DNA of 64,000 nt. Origin: Chromatiales bacterium (lineage in GTDB: Bacteria; Pseudomonadota; Gammaproteobacteria; RBG-16-57-12). Location: contig JALSJH010000022.1 in assembly GCA_026989455.1 (NCBI GenBank), positions 29,146 to 93,145 of the forward strand, given 5' to 3'. The notes under the pieces are model-generated. The model was not told where the DNA came from and did not search any database. It saw only the letters and a list, made by a program, of their open reading frames with translations. The position numbers and the translations under genes were made by a program. Positions 17,386 through 60,842 of the stretch are shown here, piece by piece; the stretch's first letter is position 1, and each line of letters opens with the position of its first letter.

Positions 17386-17844
17386 TTCCTAGGAGCTTGT
17401 CCGAGAATAGAAGCCGTAGCGAGGGGAAGCCGTTTTGAGTCCATTTTTTCGCCATATGAGGCAAATAGTTGTTCATATTTAACGAAAATGAGCGGGAAAA
17501 TGGGCCGAAGTGGCTTTTCCGCAGTAGGCTATCTACTCTCGGGCAGGCTCCTAGGGAATCTCTGATTAAGTCTGGATGAATTTAGGCTGAGAGGGAATTG
17601 TTCTCATTTGTTCCGAAATGCGCAGTAATAGTCGCTCTTATTGGTGCAATTTTCGGGATAAATGGGGGCGATTTCAGCCAGCATAAAGTATTCATGACTT
17701 GATCAGAGCTTCCCTTGAAGGCGGGGTCTAATATTTCTATTTCTATTTTCAGTAAAATTGGGTAAGATACGCGCCCAAATTCATTACGATTCTGTCGACT
17801 GGCAGCGTTGTTTAATTTATGTACAGAGAGAGGGTTTTTAGTTC

Positions 17845-21749: not shown

Positions 21750-22040
21750 ATGAAGCAGCAGCTACGATTCCTGTTTTCCCCGCTCCTCAGCCGGTTTGAG
21801 TCGGGAAACGAGCCATTCGATTACAAACCGTCTAACCGGGCTATTTTGGTGATTTTGGGTAGCCTGTTTGTCGGGCTGGCGACGCTGGTAACTGCATTTT
21901 CAAGCGGGGAAGATCTTAGCTATCTCTTCCCGGTGGTCGTTTTTGGTGGTATTGGTGCATTAAGCTTGGTGATCGGTTTTCTTGGTACGGATCGTGCGGT
22001 AGCGACGATATGGGGTAGTAAAAGAAAAAAACAGGGGTAA
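21750..22040 (+). CDS. Small two-TM membrane protein of unknown function
   Basis: 96-aa ORF with two hydrophobic helices. Its stop codon lies inside the terminal repeat of MITE copy A. Confidence 0.4.
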   Translation: MKQQLRFLFSPLLSRFESGNEPFDYKPSNRAILVILGSLFVGLATLVTAFSSGEDLSYLFPVVVFGGIGALSLVIGFLGTDRAVATIWGSKRKKQG

Positions 22041-22178
22041 CCATTCAGCGCATTCGTCTTCTGCCCCAACGCTTGGTTATTTTCGTGCTCAATCGGTCAC
22101 ATATTCCCTATATGCTCTCTTTTTGCGTGCGAAAAACACCTCAACTTGAGGCAAGGTCTAACTACGCTAAATAGTTAC
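22037..22178 (+). mobile_element. MITE-like element, copy A (about 85 percent identical to copy B)
   Basis: Shares terminal inverted repeats (gtaaccattcagcg ... cgctaaatagttac) and the internal hairpins with copies at 52793-52934 and 42186-42326. Confidence 0.65.
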
Positions 22179-40336: not shown

Positions 40337-40639
40337 ATGAGCGAAAACAATTATGGTATTGCACTGGGCATGATTGAAACACGCGGTTTGGTTCCTGCTA
40401 TTGAAGCAGCAGACGCAATGACTAAGGCTGCTGAAGTACGCCTGATTGGACGTGAGTTTGTTGGTGGCGGTTACGTGACCATTCTGGTTCGTGGTGAGAC
40501 TGGCGCTGTTAATGCTGCTGTCCGTGCGGGTGCTGATGCCTGTGAGCGTGTGGGCGATGGCCTGGTTGCTGCTCACATCATTGCACGTCCACACAAAGAA
40601 GTTGAGCCTGTGCTGAGCATGAGCATTGGCGCTAGCTAA
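40337..40639 (+). CDS. csoS1: Carboxysome shell hexamer protein CsoS1 (BMC-H), copy 1
   Basis: Canonical BMC domain (YGIALGMIETRGLVPAIEAADAMTKAAEV...). Confidence 0.95.
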   Translation: MSENNYGIALGMIETRGLVPAIEAADAMTKAAEVRLIGREFVGGGYVTILVRGETGAVNAAVRAGADACERVGDGLVAAHIIARPHKEVEPVLSMSIGAS

Positions 40640-40685
40640 ACCACCCTGTAACTTTAAATTTTTTGATTAATGAAGGAGTATCACC

Positions 40686-40976
40686 ATGGCAAATGAAACA
40701 TATGGTATTGCACTGGGCATGATTGAGACCCGCGGTTTAGTTCCTGCTATCGAAGCAGCGGACGCAATGACTAAAGCGGCAGAAGTACGTCTAATCGGAC
40801 GTGAGTTTGTTGGCGGCGGTTATGTGACTATCTTGGTTCGTGGCGAAACAGGTGCTGTTAATGCAGCTGTTCGTGCAGGCGCTGATGCTTGTGAGCGTGT
40901 TGGTGATGGCCTTGTGGCAGCACACATCATTGCGCGTCCGCACAAAGAAGTTGAGCCGGTACTTGGTAGCAAGTAA
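40686..40976 (+). CDS. csoS1: Carboxysome shell hexamer protein CsoS1 (BMC-H), copy 2
   Basis: Core is identical to copy 1 at the protein level. It differs at the N- and C-termini and at synonymous sites. Confidence 0.95.
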   Translation: MANETYGIALGMIETRGLVPAIEAADAMTKAAEVRLIGREFVGGGYVTILVRGETGAVNAAVRAGADACERVGDGLVAAHIIARPHKEVEPVLGSK

Positions 40977-41854: not shown

Positions 41855-42154
41855 ATGACTGTTAATGAAAAAAATGTGGCTGGCTCAAAAAGCTCCACAG
41901 CAGCCGCAAAGCCCGCGACCACAAAGAAAGCCCCGGCAGTTACCAAGCCGCAGGTTAAAAAAACGCCCTCCGCTAGCCGCACTAAACCAAAACCTTCAAC
42001 CGCTACGGTCGCGCCCAAGAAGCCTCAGGTTAAAAAGCCGACTTCTGCAGCCGCAACAAAATCACCTGCCAAAAGAGTGACTCCCCGTACTAAGGCTCAG
42101 CAGCCAGAAAGTTCAGGCTCACTCTCTGCTTCTCGCCGGGTTTGGCCTGACTAA
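41855..42154 (+). CDS. Lys/Pro/Ala/Thr-rich, intrinsically disordered basic protein (McdB-like or histone-H1/AlgP-like)
   Basis: 99 aa of low complexity (KPATTKKAPAVTKPQVKK...) ending ...RRVWPD. RBS aagga 8 nt upstream. Last gene of the cso operon. Confidence 0.5.
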   Translation: MTVNEKNVAGSKSSTAAAKPATTKKAPAVTKPQVKKTPSASRTKPKPSTATVAPKKPQVKKPTSAAATKSPAKRVTPRTKAQQPESSGSLSASRRVWPD

Positions 42155-42185
42155 GATAGTAAACGTGTTGTTGCGTTGATAATTC

Positions 42186-42326
42186 GTAACTATTCAGTGT
42201 GTTTAGATTTTGCTTCAAATCAAGGCATTTTCGCACGGAGAGAGGGAGCATATAGGAGGTGTGTGACCGATTGAGTACGAAAATAACGAAGAGTTGAGGG
42301 AAAAGATGAATACGCTGAGTAGTTAC
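42186..42326 (-). mobile_element. MITE-like element, copy C (inverted), with an 8-bp target-site duplication GATAATTC
   Basis: Reverse complement aligns full-length to copies A and B. Flanked by a perfect direct repeat gataattc at 42178-42185 and 42327-42334. Confidence 0.75.
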
Positions 42327-42428
42327 GATAATTCATATGTACGGTTTTGTTTATAACGAAACCATCACTGTCCAGAGATAATGTAGGTTGTTTAGGCGCC
42401 GCCTAGCAGCGAGTGTAAGGAGCTAAAA

Positions 42429-50768: not shown

Positions 50769-51157
50769 TGCTGGAGTGGCCTGGAATTGTATTTTTGATT
50801 GTGCTGACGGCTCTGTCGATAATGGTTTTTGTGGTGACGCAAAAACAGCAGAAAAGAGTTCAGCAGCAGTTGCAGCAACAACGCTCAGAGTGTGAGCAGT
50901 TGCAGTCGCAATTTAAACTTTTGGTGAGTGGTGCCCAAGGAATGGGTGAACGAATTCACTCTGTAGAGCATGCCCTCTCGACTTCAAAAAAGGCCGCCAC
51001 ACAAAATAACAGGGCAGCGAGCGGTGATGTTTCGGTGCGCCAGGCGATTGAGCTGGCTCGAAAAGGCGCGACAGTGGACGAGTTAGTTGATATTTGTGGC
51101 TTATCCCGTGGCGAGGCTGAGTTGATGAGCACTATCCATAACGTAGAGGCTCGTTAA
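50768..51157 (+). CDS. DUF2802 family membrane protein (flagellar/chemotaxis-associated)
   Basis: N-terminal TM segment, a Q-rich coiled coil, and a C-terminal ...AIELARKGATVDELVDICGLSRGEAEL... motif. Confidence 0.7.
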   Translation: MLEWPGIVFLIVLTALSIMVFVVTQKQQKRVQQQLQQQRSECEQLQSQFKLLVSGAQGMGERIHSVEHALSTSKKAATQNNRAASGDVSVRQAIELARKGATVDELVDICGLSRGEAELMSTIHNVEAR

Positions 51158-51160
51158 GGA

Positions 51161-51203
51161 ATCTCTGACTAAGCCTAAACCCATCCAGGCTTAGTCAGAG
51201 ACC
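51161..51203. terminator. Bidirectional hairpin terminator between convergent genes
   Basis: tctctgactaagcc ... ggcttagtcagaga is a perfect 14-bp inverted repeat. Confidence 0.7.
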
Positions 51204-52767: not shown

Positions 52768-52792
52768 CGCGTCGCGTTAATGAAGTTTTTTG

Positions 52793-52934
52793 GTAACTAC
52801 TCAGCGTATTCATCTTTTGCCCCAACTCTTTGTTATTTTCGTACTCAATCGGTCACATATTCCCTATATGTTCCCTCTTTGCGTACGAAAATGCCTCGAT
52901 TTGAGGAAAAATATAAACACGCTGAATAGTTACG
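52793..52934 (+). mobile_element. MITE-like element, copy B, with imperfect TSD gtttttt(g/a)
   Basis: TIRs gtaactactcagcg ... cgctgaatagttac. Two internal hairpins and a promoter-like TTGAGG-N16-TGAATA at its 3' end. Confidence 0.7.
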
Positions 52935-53028
52935 TTTTTTATCATTACGGTGAAGTGAATAATGGTTAGCTGTACGGGGAAGAGATAAACGGGGACAAGT
53001 GGCCCCTAAGCCCATATAATAATGCGTT

Positions 53029-57003: not shown

Positions 57004-57311
57004 TGGCACTGCTTGTTCTTAGTGTTGTATAGCTTGAAGTCTTAATTGTTAGCGGAGCTTGTAAGGCAACTTTAGCATGATGGAGGTGCTTATTGATATT
57101 GCGGTTCAAAAATAGGGTCTGGGGTCTCATTTGTTCTGATTTGTCGGTATTTTTTACAGCTGTAGGTTGTTTGTGGTTTTGGTGTTATTTTTGATATAAA
57201 AAACAGGCGGTTACGGAAGGTTTTTTTTGGCTTATTTTTTGCTTGTTTACTTTTCGTATTTTAAGTTTTTTGAACCATGTTAAGTAAAAACAATAAATGG
57301 AGAGTTGTCAT

Positions 57312-58241
57312 ATGAAAAATGGTATTTGGGCTGCGCCCTTTCAGAAAAATGCACTATCAGCGGCGGTTTGTCTTGGTTTGATTGTGGCGGCATCTAATGC
57401 CCAGGCCGCTGTTCTTACCGCAGGGGCAGCGGTTGATCTACAGACAGCAGCAACGGTGAGTACAACCGCTACAGATCCAGCATGGGTATCTGTTGGTGAA
57501 TATGAGTCTGACGCTACCGGCCAAGGTTTCGCATCGGGTTCGGGTAGTGACGATGGTTTCATGTTCTCCCGTGCTAGTGGTGATGGCTTCTTCTCTGCAG
57601 AGGGTTATATTCAACAAACGGTTGAGTTCACTAACACCAGCGGCATCGCACAAAACTACTTTTTCGACTTTACTATCAACAATGGTGCCTTGAGTACATA
57701 TAACTATGTCCCGCTGCTTGCGGGTGAGTATGTGCAGGCGGGCAATACGGTTGCGATTCAATTAAATGGTGCAGATATTTATACCAGTAACGCAACACTG
57801 CTGACGGATGACACTGGTTCCAGCCTTACCACAACGGGTTCTGTGCTGGGGAGTTATACCGCTGGATCGGATTACTACAGCTGGGGAACCTACAGCGGAA
57901 CACTGGATCTGGGGGTTTTTAACCCGGGTGAAAGCTTTCTGCTTGAGTACGATATATTCACCTTTGCCGATAGTAACGTTGACAGGTTAGACTCGGGTTA
58001 TGGTGAGTGTGGTTATGGTGGCTGGGGCGGTGATGAATTATGGCTTGTAGAGGAGTGTGGTGGTTGGTTTGTGACTTCTGCCGGTTCACGTTTCGGTGAC
58101 CCTAATGGTATCAGTGGTATGCCGATTAACCCAACGACTGTAACCAGTACCTCTGTACCTGAGCCAGGTCTGCTGTTCTTGCTGGGCGGTGGTGTTGCCG
58201 GGCTTGCTTTTGCGAGAAGAAACAGAGCGCGTAAAGGCTAG
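57312..58241 (+). CDS. PEP-CTERM sorting-domain secreted protein, paralog 1
   Basis: Signal peptide and C-terminal VPEPGLLFLLGGGVAGLAFARRNRARKG. RBS GGAGAG 7 nt upstream of the internal ATG, conserved with the paralog. Confidence 0.85.
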   Translation: MKNGIWAAPFQKNALSAAVCLGLIVAASNAQAAVLTAGAAVDLQTAATVSTTATDPAWVSVGEYESDATGQGFASGSGSDDGFMFSRASGDGFFSAEGYIQQTVEFTNTSGIAQNYFFDFTINNGALSTYNYVPLLAGEYVQAGNTVAIQLNGADIYTSNATLLTDDTGSSLTTTGSVLGSYTAGSDYYSWGTYSGTLDLGVFNPGESFLLEYDIFTFADSNVDRLDSGYGECGYGGWGGDELWLVEECGGWFVTSAGSRFGDPNGISGMPINPTTVTSTSVPEPGLLFLLGGGVAGLAFARRNRARKG

Positions 58242-58324
58242 TTTTTCTGCTGCATCGGCATGTCACCTCTTTGAATGGAGGTAGGCTTGCTGGTCAGTGC
58301 TGGCTTTAAGCTCTCAGTAAAAAA

Positions 58325-58348
58325 GGCACCTAACGGTGCCTTTTTTAT
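58325..58348 (+). terminator. Rho-independent terminator
   Basis: ggcacc-taac-ggtgcc followed by tttttt. Confidence 0.8.
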
Positions 58349-58609
58349 TGGCCGAACGGTATGTTGCAGAGGTTGAGGGCTTTCCCTCGTGACGACCCCT
58401 ATTCTCGGGCAGCTTCCTAGTCACTCTTTTATGGCTTAAGTGTGTTGATTTGTCGGTTTTTTTTACGGTTATTTGTTTGCTTAAATTACATTATTTTTTT
58501 TAATATAAAAAACAGCGGGTTATCCTGGTTGTTTTTAGTGGCCTGTATTTTGCTTTGTTATGCAATAAGCGTTCTGTGAGTGATGAGCAATATTAAGGAG
58601 AGTTGTAAT

Positions 58610-59542
58610 ATGAAAAGTTCTATGTGGGTTACGCCCTTTCAGAAAAATGCGCTATCAGCAGCGGTTTGCCTTGGATTGGTTGCGATGGTGCCCGCTGCAC
58701 AGGCAACTATTTTGACCGCCAGCGCAACTGTTGAAATGCAGTCATATGGTCCGCTAACCGATACTGAAACAGACCCCTCATCTGTGAGCGTGGATGTCTA
58801 TAGCAACGGTGCCGACAGCACAGGTTATGCCTATAGCGCGGCTTGGGGCAATGAGAGTGGAGATATGTTCTCCCGTGCCAGTGGTGATGGCTTCTTTTCT
58901 GCTGAGGGTCATATTCAGCAAGTGGTGGAGTTCACCAATAACAGCGGTACCGCGCAGAACTATTTTTTCGACTTCACCATAAATAGTGGCAGCCTGTGGG
59001 CGCAAAACTACGCCACTTTAGGCACGGGTGAGTATGTGCAGGCGGGCAATGCGGTTGCGATTAAATTAAATGGTGTGGATATTTTTACCAGTGAGGCGAC
59101 ATTGCTGAATGATGAGAGTGGCTTAAGTCTCTCGACCAGCGGTGTTGCACTGGGTAGTTATGTGGCCGGCTCAAGCAACTATGGCTGGGGAAACTACACC
59201 GGTACCTTGGATCTGGGAATCTTTAATGCAGGTGACAGCTTTCTGCTTGAGTACGATATTTTCACCTTTGCTGATAGTAACGCAGCAACGTTATCCAATT
59301 GTGAAGAGGGATACGGTGGATTGAGTGATGGCAATGGCGGAGATGAGGAGATGTTATGTTGGTTCACCTCTTATGGCTCTTCACGTTTCGGTGACCCCAA
59401 TGGCATTAATGGTATGCCGATCACAAATAATACCGTAACCAGCACATTGGCACAGGTGCCTGAGCCAGCTCTGTTGTTTTTGCTGGGCGGTGGTGTTGCA
59501 GGGCTTGCTTTTGCGAGAAGAAACAGAGCGCGTAAAGGCTAG
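58610..59542 (+). CDS. PEP-CTERM sorting-domain secreted protein, paralog 2
   Basis: Same architecture; the C-terminal 30 aa are identical to paralog 1. Confidence 0.85.
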   Translation: MKSSMWVTPFQKNALSAAVCLGLVAMVPAAQATILTASATVEMQSYGPLTDTETDPSSVSVDVYSNGADSTGYAYSAAWGNESGDMFSRASGDGFFSAEGHIQQVVEFTNNSGTAQNYFFDFTINSGSLWAQNYATLGTGEYVQAGNAVAIKLNGVDIFTSEATLLNDESGLSLSTSGVALGSYVAGSSNYGWGNYTGTLDLGIFNAGDSFLLEYDIFTFADSNAATLSNCEEGYGGLSDGNGGDEEMLCWFTSYGSSRFGDPNGINGMPITNNTVTSTLAQVPEPALLFLLGGGVAGLAFARRNRARKG

Positions 59543-59624
59543 TTTTACCACTGCATCGGCATGCCACCCCTTTGAGTGGAGGTAGGCCTGCTGGTCGGTA
59601 CTGGCTTTAAGCTCTCAGTAAAAA

Positions 59625-59650
59625 AGGCACCTCACGGTGCCTTTTTTATG
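59625..59650. terminator. Rho-independent terminator (also abuts the 3' end of the convergent GT gene)
   Basis: ggcacc-tcac-ggtgcc followed by tttttt. Confidence 0.75.
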
Positions 59651-60842
59651 GGTTGAGCAGTGTCTCGCAGGCGAAGAGCATCTCATCCAGTTGCTGTTGT
59701 GAGCTAAAGCCTTTGTAGTGCTCTGAAAATTGTTTTGCCTGCTTTTGGCAGGTGTCATCATTGAGCGTGGATCGAAGCTCCTCAGCAAAGTCAGGCTGCT
59801 CAGCGCTTCTGGGGTCGATGTGATGGGAGAGTTTGAAATGGCTTAATTTGCCAGCTAACAGCAGTTGTTCGAGCTGTGTAGGTAGTAACAGCAGTGGTAT
59901 ACCCATCAGTAAACAGGCGGCAACGGTTCCGTGCCCCGCATGGCATATAACAAGGTCTGCTTTCTCCGCTATGCTCTCTATTCGAATTGGATCCAGTGAG
60001 AAGTGAGTGTTTTTTGCACGATAGCTCTCCGCAGTAGCGCTATCCATTTCCGAGCAGTGGATAATGAAGTTGGCATCGATATTAATCAAACTTAATAGCA
60101 GTGCATCTAACCATTTGTATCGGCTGTTTGTATAAACAAAAATATTTTTCTGGCCATTTTCTGGCCAACTTGCCTCGGCTCCGCTGCTGTTGGTGAAGCG
60201 AGGCCCCCAGTAGGCATCCATGCGGCGCGCTGGGTAGTGATCAAGCTCTGGCAACGTGCATAAAAAACTCTCTCCCACATCAAATAGTTGATGCAGATAC
60301 TCCAACTCAGTGGTGTCGAAGTGACGCAATACGCTGTTTATGGCCTCTAAAACACACGCCTCTATATGAAGCAGAAAATTTGGCTGGGTATTTAGCCAAG
60401 GAGTGATTGAGGGGAGTGGATAGAGTGCCGGGGGTAACGAGAAGCCCGTGCCTGAAGCGGCTGCGGGTATTTTTAGTGTTCTTGCGGCAATTAACGCGGT
60501 GGGTGAGTGGTCCGCGATAATTAGCTCGGTAGCCGATGCACTCAACTTGTCTCGCCACTGTTGAACCAAGGGTAGCAAGGATTCGCTCGAGTCATATCCG
60601 CAGCGCTGCAAAATGTCAGCATAGCTGATGGTTGGTGAGGTCTGTTTTCTCTGCTGCTTATGGAGTGGAGCCTGCAGACAGGTGACCGAATCGGCATCAA
60701 GAAACTTAGTGGCATGAGTGGTGTCACGCAGCAGTGCTGAAAGCGAGTGTCCCTTGGCGGTTAATTTTTCAACCAGTGGAGAGAAAGAGGCCAGGTGGCC
60801 ATAACCTCCGCCGAGCTCCCAGCAAAATGTAATATTGGACAT
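59646..60842 (-). CDS. GT1-family glycosyltransferase (MGT/UDP-glycosyltransferase-like)
   Basis: N-terminal GGGYGH motif and a C-terminal HAGHGT..A...G.P motif typical of GT-B UDP-glycosyltransferases. Confidence 0.75.
   Translation of the reverse strand: MSNITFCWELGGGYGHLASFSPLVEKLTAKGHSLSALLRDTTHATKFLDADSVTCLQAPLHKQQRKQTSPTISYADILQRCGYDSSESLLPLVQQWRDKLSASATELIIADHSPTALIAARTLKIPAAASGTGFSLPPALYPLPSITPWLNTQPNFLLHIEACVLEAINSVLRHFDTTELEYLHQLFDVGESFLCTLPELDHYPARRMDAYWGPRFTNSSGAEASWPENGQKNIFVYTNSRYKWLDALLLSLINIDANFIIHCSEMDSATAESYRAKNTHFSLDPIRIESIAEKADLVICHAGHGTVAACLLMGIPLLLLPTQLEQLLLAGKLSHFKLSHHIDPRSAEQPDFAEELRSTLNDDTCQKQAKQFSEHYKGFSSQQQLDEMLFACETLLNP

Follow-up and report, generated by a model that had tools for sequence, protein, structure and literature searches.

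A structured repeat in a Chromatiales genome is very probably a 141-bp, hairpin-forming, non-autonomous transposable element with 8-bp target-site duplications

Correia elements duplicate the dinucleotide TA at their targets and carry 26-bp terminal repeats of a sequence unrelated to that described here, and TA is also the target duplication of ERIC elements. Together with the YPAL repeats, these two groups appear to be the known elements closest in architecture to the repeat we describe, a likeness of architecture and function only. Correia elements (CREE/NEMIS) of Neisseria are transposable elements of the miniature inverted-repeat type (MITEs), roughly 100-155 bp long, that have terminal inverted repeats, a conserved core and intergenic locations and form a long RNA hairpin in read-through transcripts; the published account also describes a promoter, proposed to be generated at the element ends, an IHF site and cleavage by RNase III (PMC2649163). 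The enterobacterial ERIC/IRU and YPAL elements are imperfect palindromes over their whole length of about 127-170 bp that are co-transcribed with genes in either orientation, and in Yersinia, ERIC copies inserted at gene 3' ends alter transcript levels via an RNase E site (PMC10969869). Here we analyze a stretch of 64,000 nt from a Chromatiales bacterium (assembly GCA_026989455.1, contig JALSJH010000022.1, positions 29,146 to 93,145 of the forward strand), referred to as the window, in which an earlier note had marked 158 bases of an intergenic repeat (52785-52942) as an RNA with two hairpins and an outward-facing promoter. This feature is very probably a copy of a non-coding, non-autonomous MITE of about 141 bp, one of three copies (A, B and C) in the window; all coordinates are window positions unless a collected locus is named.

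The element is a member of neither described group. It differs from Correia elements in its 8-bp duplication, its GTAAC ends and the absence of a promoter consensus, and from ERIC in its 8-bp duplication and in having neither sequence similarity nor an Rfam match; a further difference from ERIC and YPAL is a strand bias of wobble pairs, quantified here across subfamilies. An IHF-like stretch, ACTCAATCGGTCA, with two mismatches to WATCAANNNNTTR, was noticed in the element by eye only. The family appears to be previously undescribed, and a literature search under Sedimenticolaceae, the family name that we assumed to be relevant to these lineages, returned no paper connecting it with MITEs.

The three window copies are about 88% identical to one another, and each opens with the 14-mer GTAACTACTCAGCG and closes with its reverse complement. 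Allowing up to two mismatches, this 14-mer matches the window seven times against 0.45 expected, six of the matches being the two ends of copies A, B and C. The earlier note had overlooked these 14-bp terminal inverted repeats, as well as the palindrome running the whole length of the element. Further copies came from two collections, both made with search patterns that demanded parts of the apical domain of the element: an exact-pattern scan of one genome per species, which gave 56 loci from four gammaproteobacterial metagenome-assembled genomes (MAGs; Polarisedimenticolaceae D96SM.bin.49, MC-02, 13_Jan_SF_Bin23 and Ectothiorhodospiraceae FO_M_Gamma_061.1), and a scan of metagenomes, which gave 97 further stretches. 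The collected loci are designated by L and a number. A profile search over them returned 189 copies, 110 of them distinct and full-length, in unrelated contexts, and all but one of these 110 are 132-146 bp long. Terminal repeats are conserved in 60-67 of 78 copies, with the start GTAACT in 60. No open reading frame (ORF) is conserved in the element, and its apical loop, of either 4 or 5 nt, shifts the frame between copies.

The imperfect direct repeat gtttttt(g/a) that had been noted on both sides of copy B is real and corresponds to an 8-bp target-site duplication. Across 78 cleanly bounded sites, the flanking 8 bp are identical at 32 and have a single mismatch at 19 more (51 of 78 with at most one mismatch), as against 0 of 78 when the same comparison was shifted by 12 nt. 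The duplication length is exactly 8 bp, all other lengths giving identity at the random level, and the duplicated targets are rich in A+T (72%, against a background of 55%) and also T-rich on the + strand of the element. One filled site, in L121 (duplication CAATAAAG), is empty in the orthologous L019, which has a single copy of the target and flanks that are 74-83% identical. The identification as a MITE follows from the small size, the terminal repeats, the fixed duplication, the many dispersed copies and this presence/absence polymorphism. The three intergenic "structured repeats" of the window and hundreds in related sulfur-cycle gammaproteobacterial MAGs thereby become one mobile family, whose motifs are unfit to be labelled as promoters or small-RNA genes in annotation. 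An exact-protein look-up for an empty site of copy B returned the same organism alone, with the MITE present, and searches of a plasmid collection (blastn, E <= 1) and of viral contigs gave no match to the element.

Several insertions have individual features. The TAA of the left terminal repeat of copy A (22038-22040) is the stop codon of the ORF at 21750-22040, and the insertion probably replaced the end of this gene. L116 (11914-12085) and L114 (6152-6323) represent a subfamily with a 31-nt extension and a second perfect right terminal repeat (ATACGCTGAGTAGTTAC); because the 8-bp duplications (GTTTTCCC and GTATTTTT) flank the long form, the outer terminal repeat is the one that was used. 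In L130 (10020-10322), a nested insertion, of an unrelated element of about 210 bp with the ends GGGATGTAGAA and TTCTACATCCC, interrupts the apical loop of a copy.

Table 1. Positions of the MITE copies in the window and of the parts of copy B
Feature	Position	Strand	Sequence or remark
Left target-site duplication, copy B	52785-52792	+	GTTTTTTG; 7 of 8 positions identical to 52934-52941
MITE copy B, 141 bp, whole-length imperfect palindrome	52793-52933	+	nhmmer E = 5.5e-44; no conserved ORF
Left terminal inverted repeat, 14 bp, copy B	52793-52806	+	GTAACTACTCAGCG
Inner stem (hairpin 1), arms 52835-52844 and 52883-52892	52835-52892		encloses the apical domain: CATAT/ATATG stem and variable 4-5-nt loop
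Hairpin 2, local alternative fold of the main subfamily	52894-52906	+	CCTCGATTTGAGG; formed within the 3' arm
Right terminal inverted repeat, copy B	52920-52933	-	GTAACTATTCAGCG on the - strand, CGCTGAATAGTTAC on the + strand; includes TGAATA (52923-52928)
Right target-site duplication, copy B	52934-52941	+	GTTTTTTA
MITE copy A, 142 bp	22037-22178	+	degenerate duplication AAACAGGG / AAATAAGA, 5 of 8 positions identical
MITE copy C, 141 bp	42186-42326	-	perfect 8-bp duplication GAATTATC at 42327-42334 and 42178-42185

Terminal repeats and a fixed duplication are the marks of a DDE enzyme. Supplied in trans, a transposase would recognize the terminal inverted repeats that begin GTAAC and would insert the element into AT-rich targets by a staggered cut of 8 bp, which would leave the 8-bp duplication. 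To judge from the end sequence and the duplication length, the family is probably mobilized by a transposase of the IS66 type. IS66 transposase genes are tnpA, tnpB and tnpC, and IS66 elements are 2-3 kb long and carry them, unlike the non-coding MITE of 141 bp. The inverted repeats of the IS66 family begin GTAAGCG and its direct repeats are 8 bp long (PMC11946415); ISPa75 and ISPsy43 have ends beginning GTAACCGTCC (PMC12888890), and GTAACCG variants exist. The likeness consists of GTAA at the ends together with an 8-bp target duplication (PMC11946415, PMC12888890). IS66 repeats are usually GTAAGCG, whereas those of the MITE read GTAACTA; about 8 of 14 positions are shared with the published ends, and agreement with the consensus covers the first 4-5 nt only. 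A 2024 review of prokaryotic MITEs mentions neither IS66 nor 8-bp duplications (PMC10969869).

The whole 141 bp form a single long imperfect hairpin. We use + for the strand that the earlier note had called sense and complementary strand for the - strand of copy B. In copy B, the fold runs from end to end on both strands (z against dinucleotide shuffles, -8.9 for the + strand and -12.7 for the - strand), and the element profile also hits the reverse complement of the element, with E of about 1e-10. The hairpin has four parts: the helix of the terminal repeats; a subterminal helix that contains a tandem G.A loop and two fixed wobble pairs; a 12-16-bp segment, wholly different between subfamilies but complementary in many of them; and an inner stem that closes the apical domain. 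Alignments comprised 48 and later 109 distinct copies, and folding energies were computed on 48, then 110. Over the full structure, compensatory changes occur, in at least one copy, at 33 of 59 pairs, amounting to 214 cells of the alignment as against 68 +/- 6 after column shuffling and 31-73 with the partners slid by 1-3 columns. The 12-16-bp segment just outside the inner stem falls into about 20 subfamilies of unrelated sequence whose arms are still complementary, for example CAGATGCCGCGTTAT/ATAACGCGGCATCTG, CAGAAGCATCACTAT/ATAGTGATGCTTCTG and CAGAATTGACG/CGTCAATTCTG. The main subfamily, which includes the window copies, has an internal loop of 8-9 nt in place of this variable stem. In L127 (1335-1520), both arms are symmetrically longer by about 23 complementary nt (GCCTAAAGCGCCTACTTTTGGTG / CACCAAAAGTAGGCGCTGTTAGGC), and the fold reaches -105 kcal/mol. 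Exact matches to the apical pattern all lie within MITE copies (144 of 144), and the apical domain is therefore no separate gene. Searching the loci for 12-mers of the variable stems elsewhere, on the idea that these might act as guides, gave 95 matches against about 200 expected by chance, and thus no signal. Any function of the hairpin is one that we infer.

The strings quoted by the earlier note for copies A, B and C are all correct and in place, including the arms of hairpin 1 in copy B (ATTTTCGTAC and GTACGAAAAT, with a loop of 38 nt). Hairpin 1 is conserved, with 95.8% of its cells paired and one pair being A-U in 28 copies and G-C in 13, but it is the inner part of the whole-element hairpin and not an independent structure. 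Hairpin 2 also exists, with 91.7% of its cells paired, but none of its pairs changes on both sides and it does not extend to the family, as it is absent from about 20 subfamilies in which the equivalent of TTGAGG pairs with the 5' arm. In the minimum-energy RNA folds of both strands, TTGAGG (52901-52906) pairs over a long range with CCCCAA/CCTCAA at about 52821-52826, and this helix has compensatory changes on either strand. The claim that every stem substitution preserves pairing on the sense strand fails in copy C, whose hairpin 2 (CCTTGA/TTGAAG) has a C.A on the + strand, and in 10 of 48 copies that carry GTGCAAAAA in hairpin 1, which gives C.A on the + strand and G.U on the complementary one.

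An asymmetry of wobble pairs between the strands does exist, in the direction opposite to that proposed. RNA of the complementary strand folds with the lower energy in 48 of 48 copies of the first set and 109 of 110 of the second (means -62.2 vs -43.7 kcal/mol), and DNA parameters rank the strands in the same way (-27.4 vs -21.9; complementary strand lower in 109 of 110). RNAalifold on many copies, as the earlier note had advised, favored the complementary strand, with a consensus energy of -34.1 kcal/mol as against -3.6 for the + strand. For an identical set of 53 pairs, pairing extends to 95.8% of cells on the complementary strand and 86.3% on the + strand. In about 95% of copies, three pairs form G.U on the complementary strand and hence C.A on the + strand, and two symmetric 2x2 loops read as tandem G.A/A.G on the complementary strand and as U.C/C.U on the + strand. 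One conserved pair alone favors the + strand, a U.G (GTAC/GTGC) seen there in 45 of 48 copies; on the complementary strand it reads C.A in 103 of 109.

Wobble variants were split by frequency, those in more than three copies being taken as shared through amplification and those in three or fewer as mostly private mutations after insertion. Shared variants give G.U on the complementary strand in 19 cases and on the + strand in 2 (binomial p = 2e-4), or 19 to 3 once the conserved C.A position is included, whereas the corresponding counts for private variants, 34 and 48, do not differ significantly. A mutation bias of one strand was considered as the cause of the asymmetry and rejected, because single-column transitions at paired sites are balanced (C>T plus A>G 19, G>A plus T>C 15). 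Because the shared variants are biased and the private ones are not, we infer a constraint on spreading lineages: the contrast suggests that structure is constrained in the lineages that amplify, not in single insertions. Two further observations fit this view, the lack of an orientation bias relative to neighboring genes (20 sense and 27 antisense in tandem contexts, from crude ORF calls) and the orthologous pair L062/L032, in which one copy is decaying at about the rate of its flanks. A counter-example is the orthologous pair L070/L151, where, with flanks about 80% identical, 13 pairs have changed, 10 of them on both sides, and 1 is broken. This insertion (L070 1281-1420, L151 599-739) has on one side an apparent TatD-family gene, recognized by eye, and on the other a divergent gene with an ATG that adjoins the element; the target duplication of the insertion has decayed. 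The retained pairing may reflect selection in situ, conversion from paralogous copies or quasi-palindrome repair by template switching (PMC7202029). As a data set, the family is a clean case of hairpin pairing that survives wholesale replacement of the stem, with a strand bias found only in variants that spread.

Very improbable is the explanation originally given for the repeat, in which two independent hairpins form in a sense-strand RNA and the next gene is transcribed from an outward-facing sigma-70 promoter (TTGAGG-N16-TGAATA). It draws on the conservation of hairpin 1, on the one conserved U.G pair and two wobble positions of hairpin 2 that favor the + strand, on co-oriented genes downstream of copies A and B, and on the outward promoters known from Correia elements (PMC2649163). 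The complementary strand, however, folds better in 109 of 110 copies, and hairpin 2 lacks covariation and is missing from divergent subfamilies. The two hexamers are present as quoted, 16 nt apart, but they give no support to a sigma-70 promoter: TTGAGG agrees with the consensus at 4 of 6 positions and TGAATA with TATAAT at 2 of 6, without A2 and T6. Among 78 copies, the hexamer at the -10-like position is TGAGCA in 24, TGAATA in 21, TGAGTA in 16 and TGAACA in 5, with others in the remainder; in none does it have A2 and T6, and with the -35 hexamer counted in, the matches stay below 9 of 12 in all of them. The hexamer varies with the terminal repeat in which it lies, the exact complement of the left repeat being TGAGTA, and the hairpin arm together with the right terminal repeat incidentally generates the -35/-10-like motif. 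A consensus scan of both strands in copy B, L037 and L070 found no promoter-like site within the element, and in the interval from copy B to the next gene there is a better one (GGGACA-17-TATAAT, 10 of 12), at 52992-53020. By rough ORF calls, just 41 of 84 sites have a gene start facing the 3' end of the element, and copy C is directed into the 3' end of the convergent gene at 41855-42154. More improbable still is the view that a small RNA gene in its own right, or a member of a known RNA family, is simply repeated. Strong structure with covariation and the tandem G.A loops typical of structured RNAs would suit it, but the terminal repeats, 8-bp duplications and random genomic contexts indicate mobility, the apical-domain matches are all within MITE copies, and there is no internal promoter on either strand and no intrinsic terminator (GC-rich stem with a U-run) on the element in copy B, L037 and L070. 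Rfam 15 gives no match in the window at the gathering threshold; at E <= 10, one notable match appears on the - strand, to MIR7993 (22 bits against a gathering score of 100), a generic long hairpin of a microRNA precursor. A candidate antisense translation start, GAGGGAG 11-12 nt before an AUG, was also rejected, as UGA directly follows the AUG and stops occur in the three antisense frames.

Two other accounts accept the mobile element and concern its pairing. That complementarity of the arms is kept without selection, by template switching in quasi-palindromes or arm-to-arm conversion that mimics compensatory changes, is rather unlikely. In its favor, many single-copy variants have perfectly Watson-Crick variable stems, the arms of L127 are lengthened symmetrically, the L070/L151 pair has many double changes and a single broken pair, and the perfecting of quasi-palindromes by template switching is established in E. 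coli (PMC7202029). Such a process predicts that all mismatches are lost, whereas about 95% of copies, across subfamilies, still have three G.U pairs, one C.A and two tandem G.A loops, and the main subfamily retains its large internal loop; nor does it predict the 19:2 strand bias of shared wobble variants. Unlikely too is that hosts have co-opted inserted copies as RNA elements of read-through transcripts, as an RNase III or RNase E site, an mRNA stabilizer or an attenuator. The RNA hairpin is very stable (-50 to -87 kcal/mol), gene ends are found tens of nt or less from copies, two genomes have kept the L070/L151 copy beside a start codon despite its decayed duplication, and Correia and ERIC elements offer precedents (PMC2649163, PMC10969869). 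On the other side stand private mutations that are unbiased toward pairing on either strand, the balanced orientation relative to flanking genes and the decay of the L062/L032 copy.

The reading of the repeats as a MITE family, probably mobilized by an IS66-type transposase and constrained in fold as it spreads, has several points that weigh against it. No autonomous partner with matching ends was found in the 1.18 Mb of fetched flanks. Three kinds of search, run on 0.47-1.18 Mb of flanks, each gave nothing: a fuzzy one for the terminal repeat beyond the MITE copies, one for inverted repeats of the form GTAA...TTAC that are spaced by 0.7-4.5 kb and have 8-bp duplications, and a clustering of ORFs for multi-copy genes; the link to IS66 is consequently one of end sequence and duplication length only. 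Two candidates were set aside: a match resembling a terminal repeat in L005, tried as an insertion sequence end, adjoins the apparent C-terminus of an NAD synthetase (NadE) gene (by eye), and a half copy in L017 is a truncation and no insertion sequence. The gene-orientation counts depend on ORFs that were called crudely, with at least two calls in error. The pairing of the variable segment is not obligatory, since the most abundant subfamily has a loop where others pair fully. We also downgraded the seemingly exceptional conservation of the apical domain: it is 96% identical to consensus in the full copy set, a near-invariance that is largely ascertainment, as the scans required parts of this domain, and in five copies gathered only as neighbors the identity is 84%, compared with 81% for the terminal repeats, 85% for the subterminal parts, 66% for the variable stem and 55% for the loop. 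Finally, cut-and-paste transposition of double-stranded DNA offers no reason for strand-specific pairing.

Propagation of the MITE could depend on a strand-specific single-stranded fold, either of DNA exposed in a replicative or copy-out step or of RNA, an idea that we regard as distinctly unlikely. It is suggested by the 19:2 bias of shared variants, the conserved G.U pairs and tandem G.A loops, and the stems that have been replaced and are yet complementary. One-stranded structure would then belong to what this element, with its terminal repeats and target duplication, needs in cis; the hairpin would bring the terminal repeats together, the stem would be free to evolve as long as it stayed paired, and the apical domain would remain recognizable. 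Integron attC sites, which are imperfect palindromes with conserved outer parts and a variable but complementary central stem, and whose function is tied to the fold of one strand, may serve as a conceptual analogue only. They are recombined as single-stranded hairpins by a tyrosine recombinase, make no target duplication, are not dispersed and lack terminal inverted repeats of the kind found in the MITE. The ends of IS200/IS605 would follow a kindred logic only, under a dependence on single strands, to which the MITE would add a transposase that makes duplications. With this family, it becomes testable whether the mobility of some MITEs requires a single-strand fold; otherwise, the family is an ordinary MITE. 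A bias with respect to the replicating strand was sought in the GC skew of the flanks and is not significant (61 of 103 sites, p = 0.08). The AT skew of the +/-4-kb flanks is weakly negative on the + strand of the element at 66 of 103 sites.

Many copies lie at the extreme ends of contigs, for example in L009, L015, L025, L042, L048 and L155, the last of which terminates within copy B of the organism of the window itself. From this position of the copies, we conclude that the element family breaks short-read assemblies.

The window holds other repeats. A second MITE-like element of about 170 bp, at 17386-17557, has imperfect inverted ends of 44 nt (beginning CCTAGGAGCTTGTCCGAGAATAG and ending CTCTCGGGCAGGCTCCTAGG), with copies that are 72-79% identical in L022 (three) and L033. 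It abuts a representative, at 17555-17708, of a third repeat family of about 150 bp with the ends AGGGAATCTCTGATTAAGTC and GACTTGATCAGAGCTTCCCT, of which further copies occur in L007 (84% identical and abutting a MITE with GTAAC ends) and L001, and a related 40-nt piece at 51155-51194. Two tandem duplications are also present, one at 57299-59670 with a unit of about 1.3 kb and 71-89% identity, and one at 40352-40963 with a 349-bp unit and 87% identity.

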